Positions 3 through 26,941 of a stretch of 27,543 nt of DNA are shown piece after piece (position 1 is the stretch's first letter; every line of letters begins with the position of its first letter). Below the pieces are notes generated by a model. The model saw only the letters and a list, made by a program, of their open reading frames with translations. It searched no databases and was not told the origin of the DNA. This DNA comes from an uncultured virus (IMG/VR IMGVR_UViG_3300048839_000486) (Duplodnaviria; Heunggongvirae; Uroviricota; Caudoviricetes). The DNA is taken from the IMG/VR virus record IMGVR_UViG_3300048839_000486. The stretch is one strand, 5' to 3'. A program made the translations under genes and the position numbers.

Positions 3-971
3 AAACTGCCCCTTGAAGGACCAGTAATCAACGTCGATGTGCTTGGCTCCGGTCGAGTCCGTCTGGACATAAAACCACGGATGGCCGTTCGCGGCGTCGG
101 TCCAGAACGAAGACCCATCCGCGATGGTGAGGTCGCAGCCCGACACGCAGGCCGTGATCGGGGTGCCGCTGTCGAGTTGCGCGTAGACCTTTTTGTTCGT
201 CCCGTCTGTGTAGACCCGGAAGGTGTGCCATGCCGTGTCCAGCGCCACCCCGGTCGAGACGGATGCCTGCTCACCGCCCGCGCCCCAGACCACTTCAAAG
301 TTCCCGGTTACTGGCCGCAGCCCGATCCCGCGCGACACGCTCAGTCCGTTCGATGCCCACACCCCGAACGCGATTCGGAAGGTGATGTCGGCGGACTGCC
401 CCAGTCGGAAGATCTTCTTCTCCTCCCAGATCTTCGTGGTGTCGGTGTAGATGTTTCCGAAGATCTGAGATCCTGTTGGGGACAAAGACACTACCCCGTT
501 GTTTCCACTCGTCGCGCCCGACGCCACCCGCAGAACACCGTAATAGGGGCGCGCGCCCGTCTGGAGAGAGACGGTCGCGTTCGAGTTGAACCATCCGAGC
601 GCCCCGATCTGGAGCGAGGTCGTACCGCCGCTGACAAACTCTTCAGCGGCGCAGACCCACCGGGCATCACCCGGCAGGCAAGGCACGTCCGAGAGTTCAA
701 TCCCCCCTCCGCCGCCGCTCGTCACAGCGGTCCAGGTATTCGCCGCCGTACACAGCATCAGGTTTGAGCCGGCTTCCGCATCCGAGTCGAAAAACTGCTC
801 ACCTACGGTACACGTCGCCGGAGCCGTCGTCCCCACCTTCGCAGGAATGGTCCAGAAAGAATCCGAGGCGTCCCAATATCCCTTCAGGACTCTCGACCCA
901 TTGATTGTTTCAACGCTGCCCCAAAGAAGGGCGACGATGCCCAGAAACAGAAAAATCAGTGTGCGCTTCAT
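3..971 (-). CDS. Signal-peptide-bearing adhesin/receptor-binding-like protein, probable C-terminal beta-sandwich (lectin/LamG-like); runs off window
   Basis: Not in the ORF track; translated by hand from ATG at 971: MKRTLIFLFLGIVALLWG-SVETING...PATCTVGEQFFDSDAEAGSNLMLCTAANTWT...WHTFRVYTDG...HIDVDYWSFKGQF, open to the window edge. Starts 2 nt after the upstream stop. Confidence 0.75.
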   Translation of the reverse strand, partial: MKRTLIFLFLGIVALLWGSVETINGSRVLKGYWDASDSFWTIPAKVGTTAPATCTVGEQFFDSDAEAGSNLMLCTAANTWTAVTSGGGGGIELSDVPCLPGDARWVCAAEEFVSGGTTSLQIGALGWFNSNATVSLQTGARPYYGVLRVASGATSGNNGVVSLSPTGSQIFGNIYTDTTKIWEEKKIFRLGQSADITFRIAFGVWASNGLSVSRGIGLRPVTGNFEVVWGAGGEQASVSTGVALDTAWHTFRVYTDGTNKKVYAQLDSGTPITACVSGCDLTIADGSSFWTDAANGHPWFYVQTDSTGAKHIDVDYWSFKGQF

Positions 972-973
972 CG

Positions 974-2881
974 CTAGAAACTCCTCACAATCGTTGCCCC
1001 AAACTGGAACCCATTCGCGACCGCAATCCCCGCTCCGGTGAAATTGCAGATCTTCACCGTCATCTGGTCGATGCCGGCCACGTAGTACTCCACGATCAGA
1101 CTGGCAGGCAGTCCCGCCGGCCTGGCTCCCGCTACCGAATCCCCAGACAGCGCCCCCGGGAATGCATACGTCTGCGTCGGACACGCGCCCGCCGCGATCG
1201 TCCCCCAATCGTTCACCGTGGCTGCCACCTTCAGAAACATCGGCACCAGCGCCGGGTTGACCCCGAGCGGGGCTCCCTCACTGCCATCCCCCACCAGCGA
1301 CTCGTCCGTCACCACGGTGCCCGACCCGCCTTCGCCGCCGCCCGTGTTGGTGATCGTGATGATGTCCATTCCCTCTGTCACGCTGATTCCGGTTCCCGCC
1401 ACCAGAGTCCGCGCCGTCACGTTCGTCCCGGTCTTCAGTACCTGCGCACCGGCGCCCGAATTCGCAACGCTTGTCGTATCGCCGCTCCCACTACCACTGC
1501 TGCTCCCGCCGCCGCCTGACACGTTGACAGCGAACGCCCCGGACTGCGGAACCGCGAACGTCAAGCGGGATTCATTGTCGCTGAGGTGTTGCAGTGAGCC
1601 AGCATCCACACTCGACCCGCCGCTGTCGTACACCTGATACACCAGCGCCCGGTGTCCCGCATTGTGCTCAATGTCGATCGTCGTCACATTGTCCAGAGGA
1701 ATCCAGAGATTCGGCGATGACCCGGACCCACCACCAGGGATCAGCAATAAACGACCCGCCTGCGCCACCGCAAACGGGACCGTCACGTCAAACTGGCCTT
1801 CCCCCGCATCGGTCTGGCACTCGCCGGCGCCGGCGGCCACGACCTTGACCCCAGTGGAAGTCGCCTCCTGCGTCACGATCGCGAAGTCACAACTCCCGAT
1901 CCCATGCTCCGCCGCCGTAACAGTCCAAGTGGTAGCTGGCTCCGTGAATTCCTTAACGAACGTCGCCGTCGTTGTCGAACCTTCAACACCCCCCACCCCA
2001 CACGCAGCCGCTGCGACCTCCAGCGATTGTCCGTCTGCCGCCACTTGCACGCACCGGCCCGCCGTCCAGGACGTGCGCCCTGTTCCACCCATGTTCACGC
2101 CCAACGTGGAAGACAGACCCCCGGCTGTTCCTGTCGTATTCTGATTCAGCGTCGGAAAGTTCGTCAGATTCGCCGCGCTCACCGCCGGCAGTTGCCCCGA
2201 CTCATTCAACTGCACCAGATTGTTCGCCGCCGCACCAACCGTGTACGACGTGCCCCACGCGCTACCCGTCGAATTCGGAACGCCGGCTCCGGGATAGATC
2301 ATCTCCCCGCCACCGCTGCTCCCGCAAGCGGCTCCCGCACTCTCCAATTGCGTTCCGTCCGCGCTTACTTGAACACACCGGCCCGCTACCCACGTCCCCT
2401 GGTTTGTGCCGCCACGCGCCAGCGGGATTGTCCCTGTGGCGATTTTGCTCGCGTCCAGCGCCGGGATGCGTGCCGCATCGAACGTCCCGCTGGAAATCTG
2501 CGAAGCAGCCAACTCAAGCGCAGACTCAACAACATCCCAATCGATGTAATTGCCACTCTCGGACACAGTGACTCGCGCACTACCGGCCCGCGCACGTCGA
2601 AACTGCAAATCCACCGAATTCTTCGAGACGAAGAAGCTCGCCGCCCCAGTCCCCAAATTCGATGCCGTGTTCGCTTCGCCTCCAGTGGCGCCAGGAGCCG
2701 TGGCGCACTCAATCCGGCCCGTTGCTGTGTTCAGCGTGAGGAAGTTGTTCGCGCCGACGCAAAGAGAAAGATTCCCAACAGGCTTGCCGCCCAAGGCGTT
2801 CCCGCCGCCGCCGCCGACCCCCATTTGTCCGAATACCCCGATCGCCGTCAAGGCTGCCAACAGAAGCAATCGCTGGAACAT
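974..2881 (-). CDS. Tail-fibre-like mosaic protein with N-terminal signal peptide
   Basis: 635 aa, Gly/Ala/Thr/Ser-rich. Fibre-type motifs ASNLGTGAASFFVSKNSVDLQFR, IPALDASKIATGTIPLAR, NLVQLNESGQLPAVSAANLTN; duplicated WxAGRCVQVxADGxxLExAxAACG module; RBS GGAG. Confidence 0.75.
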   Translation of the reverse strand: MFQRLLLLAALTAIGVFGQMGVGGGGGNALGGKPVGNLSLCVGANNFLTLNTATGRIECATAPGATGGEANTASNLGTGAASFFVSKNSVDLQFRRARAGSARVTVSESGNYIDWDVVESALELAASQISSGTFDAARIPALDASKIATGTIPLARGGTNQGTWVAGRCVQVSADGTQLESAGAACGSSGGGEMIYPGAGVPNSTGSAWGTSYTVGAAANNLVQLNESGQLPAVSAANLTNFPTLNQNTTGTAGGLSSTLGVNMGGTGRTSWTAGRCVQVAADGQSLEVAAAACGVGGVEGSTTTATFVKEFTEPATTWTVTAAEHGIGSCDFAIVTQEATSTGVKVVAAGAGECQTDAGEGQFDVTVPFAVAQAGRLLLIPGGGSGSSPNLWIPLDNVTTIDIEHNAGHRALVYQVYDSGGSSVDAGSLQHLSDNESRLTFAVPQSGAFAVNVSGGGGSSSGSGSGDTTSVANSGAGAQVLKTGTNVTARTLVAGTGISVTEGMDIITITNTGGGEGGSGTVVTDESLVGDGSEGAPLGVNPALVPMFLKVAATVNDWGTIAAGACPTQTYAFPGALSGDSVAGARPAGLPASLIVEYYVAGIDQMTVKICNFTGAGIAVANGFQFGATIVRSF

Positions 2882-6736: not shown

Positions 6737-7111
6737 TCATGACCGCGACATCCGAGCCAGCTTGGCAACATTCTGAGACATATACTGGTTCACGCTCTTA
6801 ATCATCTGGGCGTGAACTTCGTACATCCAGTACGTGTTGCCAGAGTGAGCGTCGATATACCTTCGACGCTGCAACCGGCCCTCAACCCAAACCACATCAC
6901 CCTTGTCGAACTTCTCGACCCAGTCCTTGTTCCACGCGAGAACCTCGACAATATCGGACTCCCGTTCAACTCTTCCGCTGGATGCCTTCATCCACTCACG
7001 CTCGGTCTCAACCTCAAACCGAAAGTAGAATGAACTCGCCGAAATCGTAACCAATTCCGGCTTATCCAGCAAAGCCCCTACTAGAATCACTCGGTTCATC
7101 ATAAACGTCAC
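6737..7111 (-). CDS. ssb: Single-stranded DNA-binding protein homolog lacking the acidic tail
   Basis: MNRVILVG...PEL...VLAW...KGDVVWVEGRLQRRRY...YEVHA OB-fold motifs. Confidence 0.85.
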   Translation of the reverse strand: MTFMMNRVILVGALLDKPELVTISASSFYFRFEVETEREWMKASSGRVERESDIVEVLAWNKDWVEKFDKGDVVWVEGRLQRRRYIDAHSGNTYWMYEVHAQMIKSVNQYMSQNVAKLARMSRS

Positions 7112-7263: not shown

Positions 7264-7710
7264 CTAAAATGGGACTTGGTCGTCGCCGAAGCCAGTGTCC
7301 CATGGCTCCGTCCCACCGCCATCGTGTCCACCGCCATCGTGTCCACCGCCAGCGTTTCGCGGCTGCGATCTCTCACCGGACCCGGACCCCGATCCGCAGA
7401 GGATCACATCGGAGGCGACAACATCGGTATAGTACCTCGTCTCCTCGCCCGGTTTCTCGACCTTCCGGTGAGCAAGCCGGCCCTCGACAAGCAACTTTGT
7501 CCCTTTGGTCAGGTAGCTGAGAAGACCTTCCCGCCCCCAGAGCGTGACTCGGTGCCAGTCGGTTTCATCGTGGTAGTTCTCGCCACGCTTGACCGACCTT
7601 GTCGTCGCCACGCTCAGGGCTGTCACCGGGGTCCCATCCTGCATGTAGCGGGTTTCCGCGTCTTTCCCGAGGTGCCCAAGCAATTGGACGCGATTCAATG
7701 ATTTCGACAT
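7264..7710 (-). CDS. ssb: Single-stranded DNA-binding protein
   Basis: SLNRVQLLGHLGKDAETRY...TDWHRVTLWG...LTKGTKLLVEGRL; Gly-rich linker; C-terminal DDQVPF. Confidence 0.96.
   Translation of the reverse strand: MSKSLNRVQLLGHLGKDAETRYMQDGTPVTALSVATTRSVKRGENYHDETDWHRVTLWGREGLLSYLTKGTKLLVEGRLAHRKVEKPGEETRYYTDVVASDVILCGSGSGSGERSQPRNAGGGHDGGGHDGGGTEPWDTGFGDDQVPF
7313..7350. repeat. 15-bp tandem repeat (2.5 copies) in the SSB linker
   Basis: CCACCGCCATCGTGT repeated, encoding GGHDG-GGHDG-GG. Confidence 0.85.
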
Positions 7711-7792: not shown

Positions 7793-8698
7793 CTACGCGG
7801 GCAAGGGCTTGATCCCGTCCCGCATGGCGCCCACCAACTCGACATGGGGCATGTAATACTGCCGCAGGAAGGCGACAACAAGAGGGTCGTCGTCGTAAAT
7901 GCGGCTCACCTGGGCCGGGTCGCAGTACCGCTCCAGCATGTCCAACTTCACATCCGGCGCCGGACGCCGATCCCCCGTCGCCCGCATGACGAGCATTTCA
8001 GCGACTTCGTAGAGCCCGTGATGGCGAAGCCACTCCTCTGTGAGTTGCCGGCAGGACTCTTCGCGCCCTGTCATGTAGATGATGCGGTGCCCGGAGCGAT
8101 GATGCTCCATCAGGACTTCGATCATCTTGGGTATGGGCTTGTCGTTCGGAATGCCCGCCGCCGCCGCGTCCCAATCGAAATCTTCCTGGTCGCGGGCCTG
8201 CATCCGGTGGGAACTGTCAGCTAACGTCCCGTCCAAATCGAAGATGACATCAACGCCGTCATACTTCCGGCTCAGGTACTGCCTTGCCATGCCGGCGATC
8301 ACCGTCCGGCCTACCCGCGCATCACCGCGCACGGAGTCCCGCCGAACGCACTCCTCGAACGGGGTATTGACGAAGTCAATCTCCAGCGTGACACCGTAGT
8401 CGTCCGCAATCGCGGCCCACCCCGTTTGGTGTCGCCACCCCAGATTTGTGTCGTCAACGATCACCGACACCCCATTCGCGAGCGCCCTGGCGGCGATCGC
8501 GAACTGAGCGGATCGCGTGATTTCTTCCTGCTCGCGGCTCCAGGGACGGCCCGCGTGCAGCATCTCGCGCAAGGAGTCCTTATTCACGCGAATCGTGGGT
8601 GCCTTCGCGGCCTCCACTAGGGATCTCGCCCTGGTACTCTTGCCGCTCGCAGGCAGGCCGGAAAGAATGGTCAACCGAAGTTGGTCAAAGCCCATCAC
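7793..8698 (-). CDS. pseT: Polynucleotide 5'-kinase/3'-phosphatase (T4 PseT-like)
   Basis: P-loop GLPASGKST, RVNKDSLR, VIVDDTN; HAD domain FDLDGTLAD, MTGR, YDDDP. Confidence 0.92.
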   Translation of the reverse strand: MMGFDQLRLTILSGLPASGKSTRARSLVEAAKAPTIRVNKDSLREMLHAGRPWSREQEEITRSAQFAIAARALANGVSVIVDDTNLGWRHQTGWAAIADDYGVTLEIDFVNTPFEECVRRDSVRGDARVGRTVIAGMARQYLSRKYDGVDVIFDLDGTLADSSHRMQARDQEDFDWDAAAAGIPNDKPIPKMIEVLMEHHRSGHRIIYMTGREESCRQLTEEWLRHHGLYEVAEMLVMRATGDRRPAPDVKLDMLERYCDPAQVSRIYDDDPLVVAFLRQYYMPHVELVGAMRDGIKPLPA

Positions 8699-9692: not shown

Positions 9693-9697
9693 CTCAT
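9383..9697 (-). CDS. Hypothetical protein (104 aa)
   Basis: ATG overlaps the upstream TGA; RBS GGGGGTGGAG. Confidence 0.65.
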   Translation of the reverse strand: MSDLTTLHHKKGRPTFGQTIRGARLGFHWYPPVNAMVRIEDAGDTAFTVILCPSDRLPSTVAGTPHRVWWESNEDVLAMVTPPLAGRTVTQMQRLLVDNSGRVI

Positions 9698-10094
9698 GCT
9701 CCACCCCCATCGCGCAACCTGTACGGCGTGCGCTTCTCCCACCTCTCAAAGTGGCGTTCGTCGTTGGCGGTATCCACCCGGTAGGTGAATTCCCTTTGCA
9801 ATTTGTGCTTCATCAGATAGTTCATGATTTCCACCGCCACGGATTTCTTGACGCGGTATGTGGCCCATGCCCAATTCGCCGCGCCAGCCCATCCCTCATG
9901 CCGAAACTTTCGCCGCCCGATGCGCAGATGTTCGCCAGTGGACAGGAAAGCTGCGCCACGATCCCAGAAAATGCTTTCGACTTCAACGCCGAAGGCATCA
10001 AACCGCATCAAGTGATGCCCCTCAAACCCGTTGTCTCCCCCATGGCACACGTGAACGAGTACGACCTTTTCACTCACGCCCCACCCCCATCGCG
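9690..10094. repeat. 25-bp direct repeat pair (2 mismatches)
   Basis: TCACTCATGCTCCACCCCCATCGCG (9690-9714) versus TCACTCACGCCCCACCCCCATCGCG (10070-10094). Confidence 0.85.
9694..10077 (-). CDS. Hypothetical protein (127 aa), in frame with the upstream DUF5131 stub
   Basis: GTG at 10077 (VSEKVVLVHV...); could be translated as a fusion from ATG 10158. Confidence 0.65.
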   Translation of the reverse strand: MSEKVVLVHVCHGGDNGFEGHHLMRFDAFGVEVESIFWDRGAAFLSTGEHLRIGRRKFRHEGWAGAANWAWATYRVKKSVAVEIMNYLMKHKLQREFTYRVDTANDERHFERWEKRTPYRLRDGGGA

Positions 10095-10098
10095 GCGT

Positions 10099-10158
10099 GC
10101 ATCCGCGAATCGGGTTCCAGGTTGCGTCGGTCCATTCGATCTTGCTGTTTTCAGCCAT
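10099..10158 (-). pseudogene. DUF5131 (phage Gp37/Gp68) N-terminal remnant
   Basis: MAENSKIEWTDATWNPIRGC is the family N-terminus; similarity stops after about 20 codons. Confidence 0.8.
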
Positions 10159-10384
10159 TCGCTTTTCCTCCAAACCCGCTCCCACCAGGGCGACCTTCAC
10201 CGTCCGCCACCTCGATCTCGGACTCCCCAAGTTCAGCAACCAGCCGAAACTCATGGGACAGGTCGATCAATTCCTCTGCGAGTTCGGGGTACCGCCGGAG
10301 GTAGTTCTCAAGTGTTTGGCGGTCATGTTGCGGTTCTACCGAAAACGCGAACAAGACGTCTTCTGCCAGTCTTCGGTCAATCAT
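10151..10384 (-). CDS. Hypothetical protein (77 aa)
   Basis: 8-nt overlaps at both ends; RBS AAGGAG. Confidence 0.7.
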   Translation of the reverse strand: MIDRRLAEDVLFAFSVEPQHDRQTLENYLRRYPELAEELIDLSHEFRLVAELGESEIEVADGEGRPGGSGFGGKANG

Positions 10385-10568
10385 CTGCTTCTCCTTTGGG
10401 AGACAGGAGATCGCGGAGCGTCGCGTAGCAGTTCGCGCAGCCGGGGGAGATTTTCTGGCAGTGGTGGCCGATCTTGCCCGTCTCCAGGTTACGGAAGCGG
10501 ATGGGGTTGATGGTGTGGCCGCGTGATCCGTCGCGGTTCGTGACCCACTCGATCTTGGTTTCAGGCAT
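10377..10568 (-). pseudogene. Second truncated DUF5131 (Gp37/Gp68) gene
   Basis: MPETKIEWV...TINP...CQKISPGCANCYA (CxxxSPGCxNCYA motif), then an unrelated 14-aa tail and stop. Confidence 0.8.
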
Positions 10569-10575
10569 CGCGGCC

Positions 10576-10755
10576 CTCCGCCTGCGCGAGCGCGGCGCTA
10601 TCGAATCGAAATTGAGACATGGTTGAATATCCACCACAGAATGAACGGACTTCCCAATACCAGCAAGACGATAAACGCCAAGCCAAACCAAAGAATGATC
10701 TCGATTCCCTTGAATGGGTTCATGATTTCGACTACTCCGCCTGCGCGAGCGCGGC
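10576..10755. repeat. 21-bp exact direct repeat pair
   Basis: CTCCGCCTGCGCGAGCGCGGC at 10576-10596 and 10735-10755. Confidence 0.9.
10598..10723 (-). CDS. Small membrane protein (41 aa)
   Basis: MNPFKGIEIILWFGLAFIVLLVLGSPFILWWIFNHVSISIR; AT-rich relative to its flanks. Confidence 0.65.
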   Translation of the reverse strand: MNPFKGIEIILWFGLAFIVLLVLGSPFILWWIFNHVSISIR

Positions 10756-15277: not shown

Positions 15278-15464
15278 GTCGTTCACGGCTCGGTTATGGC
15301 GATATGTGACCATATTTGCTAACCAATCAATCTTTTCAGTCCGGGTCGCGTTGTACCTTATCCTCGTTTTGCGAGTTTCGCGACCCGGTGCCACTGTCCG
15401 GTGGAGCCGGGTCGCGCCCGGCGCGCTGGCTGCAAGAGTGCAGCCGGAAACCGTAAAACTTGGC

Positions 15465-16331
15465 CTAGCTCAAAACCTGCACGCCTTGCTCCGGCGAAAG
15501 CACGCCAACGCCATAGAGCAGATCCACCGTGAACTGCTGCGCCAGCGTGTTCGGCTGGTAGCTCATCAGCACCCGCATGCCGAAGTTGCCCAGCTCCGCG
15601 TACTCCGCGAGCATGCCCGAACCGGGTTGAGGCTTCTGCAACCGCCGGATCGCCAGGCCGATCGCGCTCTTCGCGAACGCCATGTTGTGCGTCGTCACCG
15701 GGCTCGCCCCCGTCTTCGGCACGAAGTGCGACCGGAACACGTAGAAGTCCTTCAACTTCCCGATCGTCCCGTCCACCAGCGCCCGCAAACCGGCTTCGCC
15801 CGCCGTGTTGTACTCGCTGAAGTTCTTCATCTGCCTCAGATGCGAGTAAGCATATGGGTCCACCACCATGTACTTCGGCTCGTTGGTCGCCACGTTCGCG
15901 TTGAACAGCGTCGTCTCCGCCGCGTCAATCACGCCTTCCGCCAGCGGCGTCCCCCCCGTGCCCAGCGGCGCGTTCACCGTGAACTGGCTGTACAACCCCA
16001 GCAGATCGCTCTCCACCCGCTCCGCCAGCGCCACCATCGCGGGTTGCATGTACAGCCGCAGCAGGTCGGGCACCGCAATCACCTTCGTCACATCTGGGAT
16101 CTGGAAGGTCGCTTCGATATGGCGATCCAGGCTGATAGAGACATCACGCGGGAGTTCCGCTGCTGGGTTGAAAATCGGGATACCCACGTGGTCGCGGATT
16201 TGCGCCGTCGTCGGCTCGAAAACGCGGTAAACCAAGTTCCCCATCACGAGGTTCCCAATCAATGCCGGAAGCGCGTCCACCGCCACCAGCTTCACAATCG
16301 CATTCGCCAAATTGGCTGAGGTCCAGATCAT
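15465..16331 (-). CDS. P22-coat/HK97-fold major capsid protein homolog (isolated copy)
   Basis: 288 aa: TSANLANAIVKLVAVDALPAL...HIEATFQIPD...YMQPAMVALAERVESDLL...AFAKSAIGLAIR...GMRVLMSYQPNTLAQQFTVDLLYGVGVL, typical P22 coat-family features. Confidence 0.85.
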   Translation of the reverse strand: MIWTSANLANAIVKLVAVDALPALIGNLVMGNLVYRVFEPTTAQIRDHVGIPIFNPAAELPRDVSISLDRHIEATFQIPDVTKVIAVPDLLRLYMQPAMVALAERVESDLLGLYSQFTVNAPLGTGGTPLAEGVIDAAETTLFNANVATNEPKYMVVDPYAYSHLRQMKNFSEYNTAGEAGLRALVDGTIGKLKDFYVFRSHFVPKTGASPVTTHNMAFAKSAIGLAIRRLQKPQPGSGMLAEYAELGNFGMRVLMSYQPNTLAQQFTVDLLYGVGVLSPEQGVQVLS

Positions 16332-16336
16332 ACTCG

Positions 16337-16573
16337 TTACCCCTTCGACACGGCCTGCCACGCCTCGCTGTAGCGGTCCACCTTGTCCCGGCGAGTCCAC
16401 TCGTCGTAGGTGTAATCGCATTGCCAGTGGTAGCAGGAGTGCGGGTTATTGTTCGCGTAGGCGGAAAACCAGATCTTGTCTTTGGTTTCCTGGTACAACT
16501 CGTCATCGGTCAGCCGTTGCAGTTTTGCCTTGTACTCGGCTTTTTTCTCAGGTGTGTTGGAAGGGTTTTTCAT
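16337..16573 (-). CDS. Hypothetical protein (78 aa)
   Basis: RBS GAGG; WFSAYANNNPHSCYHWQCD motif. Confidence 0.75.
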   Translation of the reverse strand: MKNPSNTPEKKAEYKAKLQRLTDDELYQETKDKIWFSAYANNNPHSCYHWQCDYTYDEWTRRDKVDRYSEAWQAVSKG

Positions 16574-16584
16574 TTCGTCCTCTC

Positions 16585-16615
16585 AAAAAACGGGGGCGGG
16601 AGAAGGTCCGCCCCC
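16585..16615 (-). terminator. Rho-independent terminator
   Basis: GGGGGCGG-ACCTTCTC-CCGCCCCC-GTTTTTT. Confidence 0.85.
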
Positions 16616-18816: not shown

Positions 18817-19128
18817 TCAACAGCGGCCCAAAATCAACAGCACCGGCAACCCGACGATCACGGCCAGCGTCACCACCGTCTCTGTCTTCCGGACACCCGC
18901 CATATGATCCGCACCAGGCGCCCACGGACCCAACCCCTCCTCCCGCCGCCACCGCTCATGCTCCGCACTCCCAAGAACAAATCCGTGCCCCCTCATCTCA
19001 CCCCTCACTTCTACCCCACCCCGCCCCCCATCCAGAATCTGATCCAGGACGCTACCGGAACCCCCGCCCGAACCCCGGCCAGAACTTCTACCGACCTCTT
19101 CGTACTCGTACCACTGTTCGTTCTTCAT
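18817..19128 (-). CDS. Gly-rich protein with C-terminal TM; first gene of the leftward operon
   Basis: RBS AGGT; VVTLAVIVGLPVLLILG; directly downstream of the promoter. Confidence 0.65.
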   Translation of the reverse strand: MKNEQWYEYEEVGRSSGRGSGGGSGSVLDQILDGGRGGVEVRGEMRGHGFVLGSAEHERWRREEGLGPWAPGADHMAGVRKTETVVTLAVIVGLPVLLILGRC

Positions 19129-19150
19129 GTCTCACCTGCCTACACCCCTA

Positions 19151-19179
19151 ATCCTACAGCAATGCGCCCAACTTGTCAA
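19151..19179 (-). promoter_or_regulatory. Leftward sigma70-type promoter
   Basis: TTGACA-17 nt-TAGGAT. Confidence 0.8.
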
Positions 19180-19887
19180 TAATAAACGCCGAACGTCCGC
19201 GATTTTTTTTCTGGGAGGGTTCTGTGTGGTTCCCGCGTGGTTCCCGCCCACGCAGGGACGGGCGCAGCGACAAGCAACCCATCAATCAGTATTAGTAAAA
19301 CTAATTCTTCGGCACGGAGAATTAGTGTAGGTAATCCTCCGACCGCTCCGAATTGTATATTCATACAATGAGGCGCCGGGACCTCATTCACCCTCCTCTG
19401 GTCTCCACCCGGCATCTCGGCTGCCTTTTGCCCTAAAGGCCCTATCTTCAGATAGTGTACGCCTCGATCGCCCCTGCATAAACATACGGCAGAATGAATA
19501 ACCACCCAGAAATCTGCGCCCAGCGTAATCACATATAAGCGGCATTATTTTTTGTTTGGCTTTCTGTTTTGTTTTTTTATTGGGGTGGATGGGGACAAGC
19601 CTCCAATAAATCTCCCCGTCTGGCGGGCGCCCGGCCCCTGTGCAGATTCCGGCCCGGCCCACGCGCTAGCGCTAGTCCGCGCTACCCCCTCGACTCGCTC
19701 GCTGCGTCCCACTGGGCCGCTAGGCTAGCCCGCGCTAGTTCTCACCAGGGGATCACTGGAGCACTAGGGGCTTCCCTCGCGGCCACACTCTCGCCCCCCC
19801 CACACACTCGCCCCCCCCACACACTCTCTAGACCCCAGAATCTAGCCGCATCTAGCCAAACCATCATACAAATCAGCAATTTGGTAG

Positions 19888-19916
19888 TTGACATCTAGCG
19901 CGGACTAGCGCAAAAT
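19888..19916 (+). promoter_or_regulatory. Rightward sigma70-type promoter
   Basis: TTGACA-17 nt-CAAAAT; spacer contains CTAGCG twice. Confidence 0.7.
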
Positions 19917-20002
19917 AGGGGTAGGGGCATACCCCACACAACAAACCAGACCAAACCCAAGACCAAACCCAACAAAACAAAAGACAAAGGAACCCAAACA
20001 CA

Positions 20003-20420: not shown

Positions 20421-21794
20421 ATGGCAAAACTCACCAAAAGCTACACAGACAGCACTGAATGCCTTGAGTGCGGAAATAAGCTCCCTCAGGGCTCAATTTT
20501 CCGCTACACGAACAACGCCGGGTTCTCCCGGCACGGCAAGGGAATCTGCCTCTTACTGAACGATGGCACGCCGCAAGGTACGCCCGGTTGCGGCTGGAAC
20601 GATCTCTCAGATGATGATAGGCTCATTGCCCGCTCCAAGCTCTCTGGCGCATTCGAGGTATCCCAAACCATTGAACCTAAAGGCGAAAATGGGTACAGCA
20701 CGAACGGGCACAGCGCTAGCAGCGCGCCTAGCACGAATGGCACGAACGGTGGAAACGGCGGCAACTTGGACCTGCTGGGCATCATCGCGGGCTCAGTGGC
20801 CCCCATGGTTGCCTCACAGGTCACTACGCAAGTGGCGGAAAAGCTCAAGGGGCTCAATCTCTTGGACGAAGATCGGGTGTTGGACCTGTTCGAGCAAGCC
20901 ATGGCTCAGTACAAGCCCCCCGCCGACAAGCTCGAAGTCACCCTACCCAATGGCACAGTCAACACCGTGAACGGGTTCCGGCACGCCGCCTTTGAACCCC
21001 TCATGCGCCTAGTGCAGTCCCGTCTGGACACGCTCATCTATGGGGATGCCGGTGGTGGCAAGACCACGTTAGTGATGCAGGTAGCTGAGGCTCTGGGACT
21101 CCCGTATTACGCTGTCCAGCTATCCAAACTCGCCACGCCGACCGAACTCAAGGGGTTTATCTCCGCCTCTGAGAAGTACGTGCAGACCCAGTTCTATCAA
21201 TGGTTTACTGGTGGCGGCGTGATGGCACTGGAAGAGATCGGCGCGGCCAATGGCAATCTGGCAGTCACCCTGAACACCGCGCTCGACAATGGCATCTGTT
21301 CCTTCCCCGGCATGGATTCGCCCGCAAAACGTCACCCTGACGCCATCCTGATAGGGTGCGACAATTCAAACCTCTCTGGCGCTGACCAACTCTACAGTGG
21401 CCGCGTCGCTCAGGATGCCGCATTCCGTGAACGGTTCGTGTTCTGGAAGTGGGAATACGACGAACGCTTGGAGGATCTCATCGTTCTGGGACATACCACC
21501 AAACCCGCCCCCGTCTACAACTGGAAGCCCACGATGGACCCTGAAACATGGGTCCGGAACATTCAAGCACTCCGCAAGGCCATGCTCCAACTGAAGCTCA
21601 ACGGGCGCGTCGTCATTTCCCCTCGCGCCTCTATCAAGGGGGCGAAGCTCATTCAGATCGGCTTCCCCGGTCACATCGCTGAGGAAATGGTTGTCTGGAA
21701 AGGTCTTGACCCGGATACCCGCAAACGACTCCACGCTGAGGCCAAGATGCACGGCTACAGCGAACCCGCCCCCGCGTCTAAGTGGATGTCCTAG
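20421..21794 (+). CDS. MoxR/CbbQ/CobS-type AAA+ ATPase with N-terminal Cys motif
   Basis: Walker A GDAGGGKT, Walker B ALEEIG, YSGRVAQDAAFRERF, ISPRASIKG. Confidence 0.9.
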   Translation: MAKLTKSYTDSTECLECGNKLPQGSIFRYTNNAGFSRHGKGICLLLNDGTPQGTPGCGWNDLSDDDRLIARSKLSGAFEVSQTIEPKGENGYSTNGHSASSAPSTNGTNGGNGGNLDLLGIIAGSVAPMVASQVTTQVAEKLKGLNLLDEDRVLDLFEQAMAQYKPPADKLEVTLPNGTVNTVNGFRHAAFEPLMRLVQSRLDTLIYGDAGGGKTTLVMQVAEALGLPYYAVQLSKLATPTELKGFISASEKYVQTQFYQWFTGGGVMALEEIGAANGNLAVTLNTALDNGICSFPGMDSPAKRHPDAILIGCDNSNLSGADQLYSGRVAQDAAFRERFVFWKWEYDERLEDLIVLGHTTKPAPVYNWKPTMDPETWVRNIQALRKAMLQLKLNGRVVISPRASIKGAKLIQIGFPGHIAEEMVVWKGLDPDTRKRLHAEAKMHGYSEPAPASKWMS

Positions 21795-21837
21795 TCACAG
21801 GCATAGGCACACAGAGAACCCGAAAGGAATCAACATC

Positions 21838-22689
21838 ATGTCCGGTATCGCCTCACAAGACAATCAGATCCTCGCCGCTCTCAATGGCAACACGAAACGC
21901 TTGGTCCGCCACTACTCAATCTCTGAACTCGAACAGGAACTAGGCCCCCATCGCCTCCACCTTGCCACGCCCCCATCCGTCGCCCCCGATGACTGGGACA
22001 TGATTCAGCGCTACCGTGATTCTCTCTATCAACAGTTCCATGCCTCTATGGGCTCTAGTGAAGATGTCATGGCGGACGTTTGTGGCATCGACTACGATAT
22101 GGGCGAGATGCTTGCCGGGAACCCCGAATGCTGGCAATCCATCCAGATTGCCGATGCCCCGGTCTATCACATCGCCGTGAACCCCTCCAGCCACTTCACC
22201 AGCAATCTCAGGACCCTAGTGATGCGTGGCGCCGCCCTATGCGCCATCATCGACCTACTGGAGTCTCGCGGCAGTCGCATGAGTATCGAATACTGCTACG
22301 GCGAGTCGTTCGCGGGAACCCCGCGCAAGACTGACAGGTGGCACTATCGCCTAGTCCTCAAGCAACCAGACCAACCGCTCGATATGCGCCGCATTGCCGA
22401 TTGGATTGCCGGCACGATCATCTCGCCCGAACACCAAGAGGCGTTCTTCGGCCAGACCACCACCAATCCAACCACCCATGGCATACACCTCACTACAGCA
22501 CTTGCCCTTAATCGCGGCATCTACATCGCCCCGGCCTACCAGTTTCACAACTCTCCCGAACTCAATGGCGAGTTCGACATTGCCATGGACCGCATAGAAT
22601 CGTACTGGACTGAGGAATTCGCTGAAAATTGGATTCGTCAGCAGGTCGAACAACTCTCCAACCGCGAGCACGCCGCCCTAGCCCGGTAA
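21838..22689 (+). CDS. AAA+ partner protein, degenerate vWA-like
   Basis: DVCGIDYDMGEMLAGNPECW and MRGAALCAIIDLLESRG motifs recalled from phage MoxR partners; RBS GAAAGGA. Confidence 0.7.
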   Translation: MSGIASQDNQILAALNGNTKRLVRHYSISELEQELGPHRLHLATPPSVAPDDWDMIQRYRDSLYQQFHASMGSSEDVMADVCGIDYDMGEMLAGNPECWQSIQIADAPVYHIAVNPSSHFTSNLRTLVMRGAALCAIIDLLESRGSRMSIEYCYGESFAGTPRKTDRWHYRLVLKQPDQPLDMRRIADWIAGTIISPEHQEAFFGQTTTNPTTHGIHLTTALALNRGIYIAPAYQFHNSPELNGEFDIAMDRIESYWTEEFAENWIRQQVEQLSNREHAALAR

Positions 22690-22733
22690 CTCATCGCCCG
22701 CCTATTCAGCCTATTCACCTGTCAAAGATCCGG

Positions 22734-22770
22734 CCCGGAAAGCCCCCAAAGGCTTCCGGGCTATTTCTTT
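22734..22770 (+). terminator. Rho-independent terminator
   Basis: CCCGGAAAGCC-CCCAAA-GGCTTCCGGG-CTATTTCTTT. Confidence 0.75.
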
Positions 22771-23135
22771 CCCGCGTCCACCGTCGCGCCACTAGAAGGA
22801 CGTTCTACCCCGTGGCGCAAGCGTGACAGCGTCAACATCCTACTAGTGGCGCTAGATCCTACTAGAACTCCCACCGCGCCAGGCGTGCCAGGCGTCGCGG
22901 CCCCGGCGCCAGACTCCAGCATCGTCAACCGTGCCTCTATCGCGTCCATCCTGCTAAGAACCCGCGTCATAAGCCCCGCTAATCCCCGATCCGCCGCGCA
23001 TTGCGCCAGCTTATCCAGTGCCTTGCTCACTGTGGCGTCGGCACATCCTACTAGCGCCGCAATCTCAGACGGCGACATAGATGGATGCCGCAGAATGGCG
23101 TCCACCGCCCGCTCCACGTCCGCCGCGTGCGACAT
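22761..23135 (-). CDS. Putative HTH DNA-binding protein, antisense to its neighbours
   Basis: AILRHPSMSPSEIAALVGCADATVSKAL HTH followed by a short coiled coil; start 23135 or 23210. Confidence 0.6.
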   Translation of the reverse strand: MSHAADVERAVDAILRHPSMSPSEIAALVGCADATVSKALDKLAQCAADRGLAGLMTRVLSRMDAIEARLTMLESGAGAATPGTPGAVGVLVGSSATSRMLTLSRLRHGVERPSSGATVDAGKK

Positions 23136-23318
23136 CCTGCTAGGACGGCCAACACGGGCATTCTGCCCGGTGTCCGATCCATCTTGCCGAATTGTGCGCG
23201 ATACTGGCATCTTTTCAGTTCCGTCCGACGCCGGATGTTGTCCGGCTACAGCATAACCCTAGCACAATCAAGCACTTAGGTCAATACAAAACCTCAAAAC
23301 CAACACACAAAATAATGG

Positions 23319-23347
23319 TTGACATGTATACCGAATCAGTGTAAAAT
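23319..23347 (+). promoter_or_regulatory. Strong sigma70-type promoter
   Basis: TTGACA-17 nt-TAAAAT with an A-rich upstream tract. Confidence 0.85.
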
Positions 23348-23370
23348 CATCACAGGAGGCAGTCCACCCA

Positions 23371-23652
23371 ATGGCAAACACCCCAATCACCCCAATCAAT
23401 AAGCGGGCATTCCGGCGCGTCACCCGCGCTATCACTCTCAGGTTCCGCGCTGAGGGTCATCTTCCCGGCTACGCAGAGGCCATGTACCCGGCACTGGAGG
23501 CCGGACTCCTTGCGGCACACCGCGCCGGATTTGGACCCCGCGCAGCCGCCGTCATGGAGCTTGCGCGGCACAATGTCCTGTGTGGGACGACCCCCACGCC
23601 GCCGCTCCCCATCTATGCCGCGTTCGCGGGCGGATACAGAGGGGGGCGCTAA
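23371..23652 (+). CDS. Hypothetical protein (93 aa)
   Basis: RBS AGGAGG. Confidence 0.7.
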   Translation: MANTPITPINKRAFRRVTRAITLRFRAEGHLPGYAEAMYPALEAGLLAAHRAGFGPRAAAVMELARHNVLCGTTPTPPLPIYAAFAGGYRGGR

Positions 23653-24206: not shown

Positions 24207-24896
24207 ATGCGCCTCAACAACCCCAACGAACCCCTCCGCCCCGGCTCACACTCCCCATGGGGCAGCATCCAGCACGTCGAAACCATCGTGCCGGGACACG
24301 TTCACAGTGTCTCAACCGCCTCCCATGGCGGATGGAAGGTCAGCCCTGAGTACAACCGCCGCATCCCGGCCTACATGCGGAATCGCTCCGGATGGTACGA
24401 GGAGGATTGCGAGTGCAGCATCCCCATGCTTGTGTTCGCCGATGCCGTCACTGCCAACTACGCGGATCGGGAAGGCGGACCCGAATACACCGCCAAAATG
24501 CTCAAATGCGCTGAGGACACGCTCCGCAATTGGATGCCCGACGCCTATGAGAAGTGGTTCAAGCGCAAGCTCAAACCGGGCGAGTCCAGCACTCGCGATG
24601 AACAGGAATTCAAGACCCGCCACGCTCAGGACTGGCTGATGATCTCCGCCCATACGACTGCGTCGTGGGCTCCCAACATCCCGGAAAACTTCATGGGCGT
24701 CACTGCCACTATCGGCGGGAAAAACTCCGTCGCGGAACCCCCGATCAAGCGGTATTTCATCATTCCCACCGCCGAATACCGCGAGACCCGCAACCGGCCC
24801 GAAAATCGCGGGCACTTCGTCATCGACTTGGCCCGACACATCGAAACCTCGCCGGATTGGGTCCCTCTGGGACCCAGCCTAGAGGATTGCATCTAG
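24207..24896 (+). CDS. DUF7007-like protein
   Basis: SPWG...VSTASHGGWKVSPEYN...GWYEEDCE motif recalled from plasmid/phage early regions. Confidence 0.75.
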   Translation: MRLNNPNEPLRPGSHSPWGSIQHVETIVPGHVHSVSTASHGGWKVSPEYNRRIPAYMRNRSGWYEEDCECSIPMLVFADAVTANYADREGGPEYTAKMLKCAEDTLRNWMPDAYEKWFKRKLKPGESSTRDEQEFKTRHAQDWLMISAHTTASWAPNIPENFMGVTATIGGKNSVAEPPIKRYFIIPTAEYRETRNRPENRGHFVIDLARHIETSPDWVPLGPSLEDCI

Positions 24897-24919
24897 TCCC
24901 GGAAGAAGCGAGAGAAACC

Positions 24920-25571
24920 ATGCCAACAGAAACCACCATCACGCTCTACACCCTCGAAGAACTCAAAGCGAAGGGCGAGAACTCCAAAGGCTATCAGCGG
25001 GCACTCGCATGGATGCGCGAGACCGAATCCGAATTGTGGGAGGGTAGCGACATCCTCGAAGAATGGAAGGGGGCACTCAATGCCATTGGATTTCACGATC
25101 CCGACATCCACTACAGCGGATTTTGCTCTCAGGGAGACGGCGCTGGGTTCACCTGCAAACACATCTCCCTTGTTCGACGTGCTCTCTTTCCTGTCCGGCA
25201 AGGACCCGGACGGCTACGATTGGCCCGACTTGGCCGAATGCCGCCCGGACTACGATCCTCGCTGGATGCGGCTCAGGGTTCTCATGCCGTGGCTCGATCT
25301 GTCCATCTCCCATAGCGGGCGCTACTACCACAAAAACAGCTACACGCTGGAACACTCGCTCATGGTCAACCGCGAGTACCCGCGACTCGAAAAAATGCTC
25401 GCAGACTTCATTAGCGACACCCTCGAAAATTTCAGGGAACGCCTCTGCGACGCCATCTACCAGTGCCTAGAGTCCAGCTACGACGCCGCACTGGAAACCG
25501 AAAATCTGGAAGAACTCGCCGACGTGAACGGGTACACCTTTCTCGCGAACGGCGACCGATTCGACGCATAG
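24920..25571 (+). pseudogene. Conserved phage protein split by a +1 frameshift near 25165-25172
   Basis: N-half ...YSGFCSQGDGAGF in one frame; C-half RYYH...IYQCLESSYD...NGYTFLANG in the +1 frame. Confidence 0.7.
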
Positions 25572-25603
25572 CCCCCACCCAACACAGGAGAATCGAGGAC
25601 CCC

Positions 25604-25969
25604 ATGATTAACCACATCGAAGACATTGAAGACCTCATCGCCGCCCGCGCTGAACTCGCCGAGTACATCCGTGAGGGACGCAAGATTGGGCTCATCCAGC
25701 GCGTCCGGAAGAATCGCGACAGGGATTCATTCCGCCGCTATCTCTACGGTGGCTGGGCTCTCCGTGAATCGTGGCTCAGGACCCGCCCGACGCGGGCATC
25801 CCTCCGCACCCTTGCCGCATCCTACTCCGCCGCCGCCGAACGCATCCGCGCCGACGTGGCTACCAGCAACTACCCTTGCGGTCATGACGACATGCTCCTC
25901 GATACGGCAGACCACTACGCCAGCGAGTCCCGCCGCATCGCGGAGATGGCGAAACAGGCGCGGAGATAA
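25604..25969 (+). CDS. Hypothetical protein (121 aa)
   Basis: RBS GAGG. Confidence 0.7.
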   Translation: MINHIEDIEDLIAARAELAEYIREGRKIGLIQRVRKNRDRDSFRRYLYGGWALRESWLRTRPTRASLRTLAASYSAAAERIRADVATSNYPCGHDDMLLDTADHYASESRRIAEMAKQARR

Positions 25970-25979
25970 GAGGAACCCC

Positions 25980-26237
25980 ATGCGCCGCGCCCCCTTCTTC
26001 ACCCTGCCCGAAACGGGCGAATCCTACGCCCATGAGGCAATCCACCGCGTGCTCAGTTACTGCGAACGGCAGAGGGTAGAGCACTCCATCTATTCCGGCC
26101 CGCAACCGGACGAAACTCTCCACCGCGCCTACATTGAGGCCGGATACGTCATGCAATCGGCACTCCGCCGCAGCGTGGAAGCCGCCACCCTCAGCACTCT
26201 CAACACCCAACCGAAAGGAACCAACACCCATGCCTAA
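25980..26237 (+). CDS. Hypothetical protein (85 aa)
   Basis: RBS GAGGA; 8-nt overlap with the next gene. Confidence 0.6.
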   Translation: MRRAPFFTLPETGESYAHEAIHRVLSYCERQRVEHSIYSGPQPDETLHRAYIEAGYVMQSALRRSVEAATLSTLNTQPKGTNTHA

Positions 26238-26820
26238 ATCCAACGCCGACGCCCCCATCGTGGGCCTTCTTGTCACGCCCTGGCGGCGCCAACAGCACGA
26301 TAGCGACTCTAGCCGCTACTACGTCCTGCCCGTCGTCATCAGCAAAGTGGACGGCAAGCCCCGGAACATCTCCCGGTCATCCTCCTACGATCACCCCGAA
26401 GTCGGGATGCTAGAGGATCTGGAATTCGGTGTCCGCGTGACTTGGTACAAAGACGCCAACGGGGTGCCGGCATGGAAAGCCCATCTCCCCGGCAGCGTCG
26501 AATACCGTGGGCACATGGTTCTGGACGCCCATGACATCGCCTCAATGTCGAAGGGGATGGCCCGCGTCAATCGCGCCGTCGCGAAGTTTCCCGTCGCGCC
26601 CGCGTCGTTCGGTCAGTTCTGCGTCATGCTGGCACAGGCATTGGGGATCAGGCACGCGCTGTATGAGACCAGTGGACACAGCGCCTACAGCTACACCCAG
26701 TGCGAATACCTCACTCGCGACATTCGCGCCGCCGAACACTGGATCAATGAGGAGATCGAGAAAATCCGGCTGAAGGTGATTCCGGCAACGTCCGACGCCG
26801 GATGCGCCCACGCCGCCTAG
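26230..26820 (+). CDS. Hypothetical protein (196 aa)
   Basis: RBS GAAAGGA. Confidence 0.7.
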   Translation: MPKSNADAPIVGLLVTPWRRQQHDSDSSRYYVLPVVISKVDGKPRNISRSSSYDHPEVGMLEDLEFGVRVTWYKDANGVPAWKAHLPGSVEYRGHMVLDAHDIASMSKGMARVNRAVAKFPVAPASFGQFCVMLAQALGIRHALYETSGHSAYSYTQCEYLTRDIRAAEHWINEEIEKIRLKVIPATSDAGCAHAA

Positions 26821-26833
26821 TGCTCCAATCCTA

Positions 26834-26862
26834 GCTCACGGCTAGAACCCCTAGCCGTGAGC
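26834..26862. repeat. Perfect 12-bp inverted repeat
   Basis: GCTCACGGCTAG-AACCC-CTAGCCGTGAGC. Confidence 0.85.
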
Positions 26863-26941
26863 CTCGATGGGCGCACCGGGCAACCGGCCAGCGTGACCAG
26901 CGTGACAGAGACAGCAAGACAACGAAAGGTGCTAGACGAAA

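Follow-up and report, generated by a model that had tools for sequence, protein, structure and literature searches.

Here we report that a tailed phage of roughly 100 kb carries, well away from its own head genes, an extra capsid-protein gene captured from a GTA-like head-tail cluster of Bryobacterales. The gene lies in a 27,543-nucleotide stretch of an uncultured virus (IMG/VR record IMGVR_UViG_3300048839_000486; Caudoviricetes), the whole of which we call the window. Its product is recognisably the coat protein of those clusters, with a replaced and shortened E-loop, and patterns of substitution suggest that it has remained under some constraint on the phage.

A capsid gene among accessory genes

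The 288-aa ORF is intact and encodes an HK97/P22-type capsid protein, matching PHROG 283 ('major head protein') at E=1.5e-30 and the Pfam family P22_CoatProtein (PF11651) at E=7.3e-13, with 48.5 bits against a cut-off of 24. A longer, 318-aa reading starting at 16421 was dropped, as every relative aligns from the ATG at 16331. The model that AlphaFold2 gives from an alignment of 59 diverse relatives (pLDDT 96.7, pTM 0.92) has the elements of the HK97 fold, namely an N-arm helix (residues 2-27), an E-loop hairpin (strands 48-53 and 62-67), a spine helix (residues 89-116) and the P and A domains. Foldseek matches it best to phage coats, with E-values of 3e-13 or lower (Mycobacteriophage Douge gp8, cyanophages P-SCSP1u and A4, P22 and Che8), and encapsulin shells match more weakly, at E about 1e-10. 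In profile and in fold the protein belongs with the HK97-fold, P22-coat-like major capsid proteins (MCPs); its gene does not stand in a head module beside portal and scaffold genes. Nor does it have the marks of an encapsulin gene, the nearest relatives all lying in head-tail clusters and the neighbouring genes giving no match to a cargo-type family.

Apart from the capsid gene, none of the 150 window ORFs of at least 75 aa that were scanned matched a head or packaging family. When the 15 proteins of a reference cluster (L025) were compared with the window by tblastn, the capsid gene alone matched, at 68.6% identity, and the other 14 proteins found no match; in the reverse direction, with 47 window genes set against 119 related cluster loci (1.2 Mb), the capsid gene was again the sole one shared. 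The preliminary description had called the gene an orphan, P22-coat-like and with no portal, terminase, scaffold or protease in the window, and the family scan and the tblastn comparison agree with it. No cluster gene besides the MCP gene was found across the 57.6 kb of phage DNA that are known, which comprise the window and the overlapping virus record G001 introduced below.

The setting of the gene is one of small accessory and DNA-metabolism genes. Around it, small minus-strand ORFs follow one another closely (Table 1), and the other recognisable genes of the window encode a dUTPase, two SSBs, a polynucleotide kinase-phosphatase, an AAA_5 (CobS-like) ATPase, DUF7192 and DUF7007. The best cultured-phage match of the ATPase is Acidobacteriota phage Tunturi_4, at 32%; this Tunturiibacter phage was considered as a relative, weakly shares four genes and was not used further, and a related-locus search by way of the AAA ATPase found no viral relatives. 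The 78-aa ORF next to the capsid gene has nine relatives at 55-70% identity, and its family occurs in five other large IMG/VR phage contigs, with no capsid neighbour there and no match to any of the other 46 window genes. It appears to be a phage accessory family, and its candidacy as part of a capsid cassette was ruled out by these capsid-free relatives. On the other side of the capsid gene, the 151-nt spacer has a predicted fold with an MFE of -58.8 kcal/mol (z=-2.9), as stable a fold being reached by one of 200 shuffles; Rfam gave no family at gathering score in the whole window.

Table 1. Features of the window and of the overlapping virus record G001
Feature	Record	Position	Strand	Remarks
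Capsid-homolog gene	window	15465..16331	-	288 codons and TAG stop; start MIWTSANL
Replaced, shortened distal E-loop segment	window	16116..16200	-	85 nt against 127 nt in L083; 14 codons fewer
78-aa ORF with conserved SCYHWQC motif	window	16337..16573	-	RBS GAGAGGA; stop 5 nt before capsid ATG
Strong intrinsic-terminator-like hairpin	window	16592..16615	-	8 G-C pairs, then T run; just upstream of the pair of 78-aa ORF and capsid gene
Structured intergenic spacer, 151 nt	window	15314..15464	-	downstream of capsid gene; no T tract
Sigma-70-like promoter match TTGACA-17-TAGGAT	window	19151..19179	-	head of the minus-strand small-ORF block holding the capsid homolog
Divergent sigma-70-like promoter match	window	19888..19916		faces the 19179-19151 match
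Large terminase TerL, 752 aa	G001	24632-26887		PHROG 2, 1e-18
Portal, 622 aa	G001	21727-23592		PHROG 156, 1.9e-17; Pfam P22_portal
299-aa gene	G001			scaffold position; no family match
Major head protein, 360 aa	G001	18881-19960		PHROG 9953, 4.3e-22; GC3 0.85, the highest of 23 G001 ORFs examined
Two SU10_adaptor proteins	G001			head module; Pfam SU10_adaptor
1289-aa internal-virion-protein-like gene	G001			module
1264-aa protein	G001			module; weak, sub-threshold match to carbohydrate-binding module CBM_4_9
Amidase endolysin	G001			module

The promoter matches are matches to consensus only, three sites being found where shuffled sequence gives an expected 1.7. Expression of the capsid homolog ahead of the late genes is plausible, because host-type promoter matches lie close by and the head module lies far downstream on the same strand. 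The phage stretch was found in none of the public sequencing runs searched, the shares of sampled words being at most 0.12, and the contigs from public runs that aligned to it were host-cluster relatives covering the capsid gene alone. One RNA-library run (X19) contains host-type relatives of the gene, an observation that says nothing on the expression of the phage gene.

The phage's own coat lies elsewhere. The nearest virus record to the window, G001 (50,238 bp, rated 51% complete), is 100% identical by blastn over its positions 30064-50238 to window positions 1-20175 and continues for 30,063 bp past the left end of the window; the longest of the contigs with the identical 288-aa protein reaches 101,254 bp. 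In G001, the strand of the window capsid gene also bears a conventional module of head and tail genes, with those of the head in the canonical order of terminase, portal, 299-aa gene, MCP and adaptors and with TerL 5.4 kb left of window position 1. Homologs of the 360-aa head protein occur on many contigs of 95-111 kb, three of them being pre-annotated as PF17236 ('SU10 major capsid protein'). A PDB sequence search with the 360-aa protein family gave no match. The module is syntenic, at 29-59% identity, with that of G003, a 99-kb relative rated 100% complete, and the 360-aa protein is 59% identical to its counterpart there.

No similarity was detected between the 288-aa and 360-aa proteins (BLASTP E=3; hhalign probability 0.7%), and their genes are separated by ~25.6 kb, with DNA-metabolism and accessory genes between. 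G001 has its own terminase, portal, scaffold-like gene and unrelated 360-aa head protein, and the window gene is therefore a second, foreign capsid homolog and not the coat gene of the phage. The separate true MCP that the preliminary description had thought worth looking for was thus located, beside portal and terminase. The true structural genes of the carrier are of the same type as SU10-type podophage head modules, and the 288-aa gene stands wholly outside this module. None of four related records (G003-G006) yielded a homolog of the 288-aa protein in a search that does recover it in G001; this is weak evidence, because these phages have only the structural core in common with the carrier.

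The donor cluster and the capture

A search of 5.8 billion proteins returned more than 5000 homologs of the 288-aa protein. The best 120 are almost all exactly 303 aa long, at 67-79% identity, and many of these 120 come from Mb-size contigs named Bryobacteraceae, Paludibaculum or Solibacter; the likeness to a capsid protein of Acidobacteriota chromosomal clusters, which the preliminary description had noted, is borne out by them. A related-locus search of metagenome contigs recovered host-cluster copies only, the best of them (L083) at 78% protein identity.

The cluster is ~14 kb long and syntenic, encoding a large terminase, a portal, a 195-aa protein, the 303-aa capsid protein, several small proteins, two DUF2460 proteins and a 1306-aa Phage-tail_3 protein, and on contigs of 95-727 kb it shows this order, with ordinary host genes for neighbours. 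At the three loci where the flank was inspected, on the side upstream of TerL, the neighbours are varying and ordinary host genes (asparagine synthase, PMT_2 glycosyltransferase, phosphofructokinase, QueF and LPG synthase). Among the genome loci, 76 of 79 are labelled Acidobacteriota, and 58 of those 76 Bryobacterales. Sampling of 151 genomes in the order to which a Bryobacteraceae-labelled MAG belongs found the capsid gene in 98, almost always in single copy and in five in pieces. The length of the MCP is 303 aa in 172 of 185 copies from retrieved loci and 299-304 aa in all of them.

With head-tail genes but no replication or integration genes, vertical conservation and host flanks, the cluster has the gene content expected of a GTA. 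The pattern is the signature of a domesticated GTA-like head-tail element, a candidate producer of particles. No description of a cluster of this kind in Acidobacteria was found among the titles and abstracts that a literature search returned. Prophages have been reported in Acidobacteria (PMC5900883), and the Bryobacterales cluster goes unmentioned in the 12 of 22 passages of that paper that were covered. The host of the phage probably belongs to Bryobacterales/Acidobacteriota from soil and sludge, a placement that derives solely from the similarity of the gene to the cluster copies.

In a tree built without the loop columns, by a quick search with SH-aLRT supports and no bootstrap, the window protein pairs with P0004 (SH-aLRT 97), a 289-aa protein from a 1.3-kb contig, and the pair falls inside a clade of 303-aa proteins (P0005-P0008; SH-aLRT 99) that itself lies within the wider 303-aa family. 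The window tip has a length of 0.15 and the stem shared with P0004 one of 0.063; members of the 303-aa clade have branches of at most 0.01. The closest DNA relative is the cluster gene on metagenome contig L083, which blastn aligns at 90% over window positions 16322-16201 and at 89% over 16115-15465. Homology begins near codon 4 and stops exactly at the stop codon, the flanks are unrelated, and dS between the two genes is 0.24.

The nesting within the 303-aa clade, the ending of homology at the ends of the ORF and the dS together show that the gene passed from cluster to phage, as a bare ORF and fairly recently. A captured capsid had been proposed in the preliminary description, and both the boundaries of homology with the donor and the phylogeny against host chromosomal copies, in which the window protein and P0004 sit among 303-aa proteins, speak for it. 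Among the best 120 matches the short-loop lineage consists of these two members.

The phage protein resembles the cluster MCP (the 303-aa family; PHROG 283, P22_CoatProtein) at 68-79% protein identity and, outside the loop, at 89-90% DNA identity to the nearest copy; it has the same predicted fold and keeps 129 of 145 conserved positions. It is a member of the 303-aa family by phylogenetic placement, and departs from it in having 288 and not 303 aa, in a replaced distal E-loop 14 residues shorter than the family's 41-aa segment, in standing on a phage without cluster synteny and without the other 14 cluster genes, and in evolving several-fold faster.

The remodelled E-loop and selection on the gene

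Between the replaced segment and the corresponding 127 nt of L083 no nucleotide similarity was detected by blastn. Host-type contigs from four public runs show the same junction, skipping 88 letters and carrying 130 in their place. At the protein level, the segment from D47 to E73 comprises 27 aa in the window protein and 41 aa in its nearest relatives. AlphaFold2 keeps both base strands of the hairpin in both forms, with an excursion of 8 residues in the window protein and of 22 in the 303-aa protein P0005 (pLDDT of its model 96.2), and by HK97 topology, in which N-arm, hairpin and spine helix follow one another, the altered excursion is the distal E-loop. A remodelled E-loop some 10-15 residues shorter, in an otherwise conserved protein, had been described from the letters alone, and the 14 missing residues between flanks of 89-90% DNA identity match that description closely. 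So does codon usage, which had been said to favour A/T-ending codons in the loop over the 3' part: GC3 is 0.62 in codons 45-73 and 0.90 in codons 74-288 (0.894 for the L083 gene overall), and the 29-codon window of lowest GC3 in the gene starts at codon 52.

The loop of P0004 is, like that of the window protein, 27 aa long, and the two align without gaps at 48% identity, against 85.5% for the rest of the proteins. Across 3,615 pairs of 303-aa proteins at comparable divergence the loop has a mean identity of 83%, and in no pair does it fall to 50% or below. Searches for a donor of the short loop in other family members (blastp-short and blastn-short) returned nothing besides the loop of P0004, and a degenerate loop pattern had no match in metagenome contigs. 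The loop underwent a single remodelling, in an ancestor shared by the two short forms, and it has evolved fast since.

Among 59 diverse full-length relatives, taken as 50%-identity representatives, the segment measures 41-42 aa in 28 and 14-28 aa in about 23. Short E-loops thus appear to be normal somewhere in the family, and a short loop alone does not disable a coat protein. The preliminary description had allowed that homologs of equal loop length would speak against its proposal; the nearest relatives, at 41 aa, have the longer loop as it supposed, but these short diverse relatives take some of the force from the argument. One short form, P0113 (282 aa, with a 21-aa loop), comes from a phage-like contig of 41.8 kb that has no cluster genes, and may be the real coat protein of that contig. 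Its neighbours of 594, 242 and 383 aa had no family match, and the 594-aa one gave nothing against two portals by BLASTP and no usable match in the ESM Atlas.

With changes polarised by L083 and six outgroups, the window branch carries 25 synonymous and 36 nonsynonymous changes (omega about 0.50; one-sided binomial p=0.007 against neutrality) and the L083 branch 9 and 8 (omega about 0.31). Three-taxon estimates of omega are 0.41-0.50 for the window and 0.18-0.29 for L083, against a family background of 0.14-0.21; all of these come from simple counting methods, and the window branch also spans time before the transfer. Outside the loop, 145 columns have a conservation of 95% or more, and the window protein departs from the consensus at 16 of them. 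Eight of the 16 departures fall at positions 35-64, flanking the E-loop, and the changes at 202, 279 and 280 are common to P0004.

These counts indicate a gene that evolves faster and yet not neutrally. Neutral decay, which had been named at the outset as a finding that would tell against a repurposed capsid, is not what an omega of about 0.5 (p=0.007) suggests. The rise of omega, about 2-3 fold over background, would fit relaxed constraint and a new function equally well.

Possible roles of the captured coat protein

In HK97-fold shells the E-loop overlies the neighbouring subunit and stabilises the lattice. In light of this, the mechanism that best fits the analysis is dominant-negative interference with host-particle assembly, which we put forward tentatively, holding it at somewhat less than even confidence. 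The 288-aa protein would be made during infection and would still dock on the capsid subunits of the host cluster, since it retains 129 of the 145 best-conserved positions, but it would come without the long E-loop arm that reaches over the neighbouring subunit in such shells. As a result, mixed capsomers or shells of the host particle would form wrongly, lack stability or fail to mature, and the phage would gain from this should the cluster be a competitor or an antagonist during infection. More doubtful is the full form of the proposal, in which a lytic or large tailed phage uses an E-loop-clipped copy, probably expressed before the late genes, to poison or re-size the capsids of the GTA-like element of its host; if so, a phage-encoded capsid poison of the 'anti-GTA' or anti-satellite kind would be described for the first time.

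Signs of retained function are the intact ORF, the confidence of the predicted model (pLDDT 96.7), an omega below 1 and the recurrence of the 27-aa loop length in P0004. The preliminary description had read the gene as a captured capsid put to a new use, as a poison, a size modifier or an immune decoy; the capture, the separate coat and the non-neutral evolution are supported, the new use is putative, and the immune-decoy version is weakened because the protein does not resemble the coat that the phage itself encodes.

The logic of co-assembly interference is that of SaPI Ccm, reportedly an island-encoded staphylococcal capsid homolog that redirects the assembly of helper-phage capsids. In both cases one element encodes a homolog of another's coat, and here a homolog of the putative target's coat does stand on a different element. 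The direction is reversed, a phage with a full head module carrying the coat homolog of a chromosomal element; the modification here is an E-loop truncation, and an effect on co-assembly or size is here predicted only. Coat genes moving between phages and chromosomal elements are also a feature in common with capsid-forming PICIs, which a preprint describes as chromosomal elements with their own head genes (bioRxiv 10.1101/2022.09.08.507074). Those elements encode full head sets for their own packaging, whereas the coat gene of the window stands by itself, no portal, protease or terminase of like origin accompanying it.

The gene might instead be a passenger, an accidental and recent capture (a moron without a role) that is drifting under relaxed selection and will be lost, with the loop swap as a step of its decay, and this we consider unlikely though far from negligible. 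It would explain why the omega of the window branch, about 0.41-0.50, exceeds that of the L083 branch (0.18-0.31) and the background (0.14-0.21), why the lineage is so rare that the best 120 matches include one other member, why all four structurally related records G003-G006 lack the gene, and why its bulk GC3 of ~0.90 is still donor-like (L083 0.894) and unadjusted to the ~0.70-0.78 of its phage neighbours. A gene on its way out would not readily be expected, however, to have an intact ORF of 288 codons with an omega below 1 (p=0.007), 129 of 145 conserved positions retained, and a mere 5 nt between its start and a preceding ORF that has a good RBS; the equal loop length in two proteins that are 85% identical moreover points to persistence after the remodelling. 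A different use of the same protein, as an immune or regulatory decoy that binds or titrates a host factor sensing the cluster capsid, in defence or in lysis control, and never enters capsids, seems improbable to us. Capsid proteins can trigger bacterial immunity, as reported for CapRel-SJ46, and a fast-evolving loop would suit an arms-race surface. In Caulobacter the CARD-NLR-like system LypABC is needed for GTA-mediated lysis (PMC13236601), and GTA components and immune-like modules can therefore be coupled. No sensor gene was identified, however, and the titles and abstracts returned by searches on capsid decoys and capsid-homolog interference offered no phage-encoded copy of a host-particle capsid. 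A decoy for the phage's own capsid in particular is unlikely, because such a protein should resemble that coat, and no similarity to the 360-aa protein was detectable (BLASTP E=3; hhalign 0.7%).

Lower again we place a structural or compartment role for the phage, as a minor shell or vertex protein or as an encapsulin-like compartment. Some phages have paralogous vertex proteins, such as gp24 of T4, and the window protein has a complete HK97 fold that Foldseek also matches to encapsulin shells (E about 1e-10), but it is unrelated in sequence to the 360-aa coat, 25.6 kb separate its gene, which belongs to a series of small ORFs following a host-type promoter match, from the head module, it was not found in G003, which is rated 100% complete and has the head module, and no cargo-like neighbour was recognised. 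That the gene encodes the real MCP of the phage, with the remaining head genes outside the window, is hardly credible. Taken by itself the window would allow it, and head genes do lie just outside, TerL being 5.4 kb left of position 1, but the module in G001 has its own 360-aa head protein (PHROG 9953, 4.3e-22) in the canonical place, 59% identical to its G003 counterpart, and the window gene is ~25 kb away from that module. Interference with host-particle assembly remains the reading that we prefer.

Capsid-homolog interference is known from satellites acting on phages, and none of the titles and abstracts returned by literature searches describes a phage with a copied coat gene from a GTA or host particle. 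If the captured protein is functional, shell assembly would be a point of direct conflict between GTA-like clusters and phages, and clipping the E-loop while keeping the core would be a natural minimal recipe for disabling an HK97 shell. An anti-GTA poison, if that reading is true, would imply activity of the widespread Bryobacterales cluster in infected cells, at a cost to phages. The finding also draws attention to a conserved head-tail cluster present in 98 of 151 sampled genomes of the Bryobacterales order, and even if the gene is a mere passenger, it ties an uncultured phage lineage to Bryobacterales hosts.

Genes and folded spacer of the window

Three large ORFs (Table) lie between the terminase and the DNA-metabolism genes; none has a Pfam match, and only one has a PHROG match, which is weak. 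Among the DNA-metabolism genes we identified two adjacent genes for single-strand DNA-binding proteins (SSB). Each of two neighbouring ORFs has a match to PHROG 2045 / DUF5131 that covers just the initial 20-33 positions of that family; the two may represent an N-terminal fragment that has been duplicated or split. The AAA_5 ATPase is CobS-like and matches PHROG 249 (“porphyrin biosynthesis”); it and its DUF7192 partner also occur as a pair in the Tunturiibacter phage Tunturi_4, at 32% and 30% identity, respectively.

The spacer 3' of the capsid gene has a folding energy of -58.8 kcal/mol (z=-2.9), and CGCGACCCGG occurs twice within it, with its complement between the two copies. No Rfam family matched this spacer.

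Locations of features in the window and in related sequences
Feature	Location	Strand	Remark
Large ORFs (~350, 635, 923 aa)	window 3-2881 and G001 (longer virus record) 27277-30045	-	
SSB gene 1	window 6737-7111	-	Pfam SSB 1e-15
SSB gene 2	window 7264-7698	-	Pfam SSB 2e-25
T4-Pnk-like polynucleotide kinase-phosphatase	window 7793-8698		beside SSB pair
PHROG 2045 / DUF5131 ORFs	window 9694-10254, 10377-10691	-	neighbours
Intergenic spacer	window 15314-15464	-	unusually stable fold
AAA_5 ATPase and DUF7192 genes	window 20421-22689	+	
P0113 gene	L127 / G002:C7 5402-6247 (L224)		41.8-kb phage-like contig
Head-tail cluster	e.g. L025 1-14315		~14 kb

Another short-loop capsid homologue

P0113, a 282-aa member of the capsid family, has a loop of 21 aa that was shortened independently. 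Its contig carries genes for RecT, Gam, an invertase and a methylase and a tail-fibre-like gene, and is binned in a Saccharibacteria-labelled MAG, yet its GC content is 61%. We found no cluster genes near P0113, which may be the real coat protein of that contig's phage or another stray copy.

A conserved head-tail cluster in Bryobacterales

The cluster (loci L025, L083, L100, L102 and L107) consists of head-tail genes only, encoding TerL, portal, a 195-aa protein, a 303-aa major capsid protein (MCP), further products, two DUF2460 proteins and a 1306-aa Phage-tail_3 protein, and is flanked by ordinary host genes. It is present, mostly in single copy, in 98 of the 151 genomes sampled from the order (set G007-G159); the MCP is split into two pieces in five genomes of this set. 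Of 79 genome loci that carry a Bryobacterales-type cluster, three are in MAGs labelled as other phyla (Arcobacter for L155 and L175, Rhodospirillales for L169); transfer is a less likely cause of these cases than an error in binning or labelling. The cluster appears to be a GTA-like element of Bryobacterales that has not been described before.
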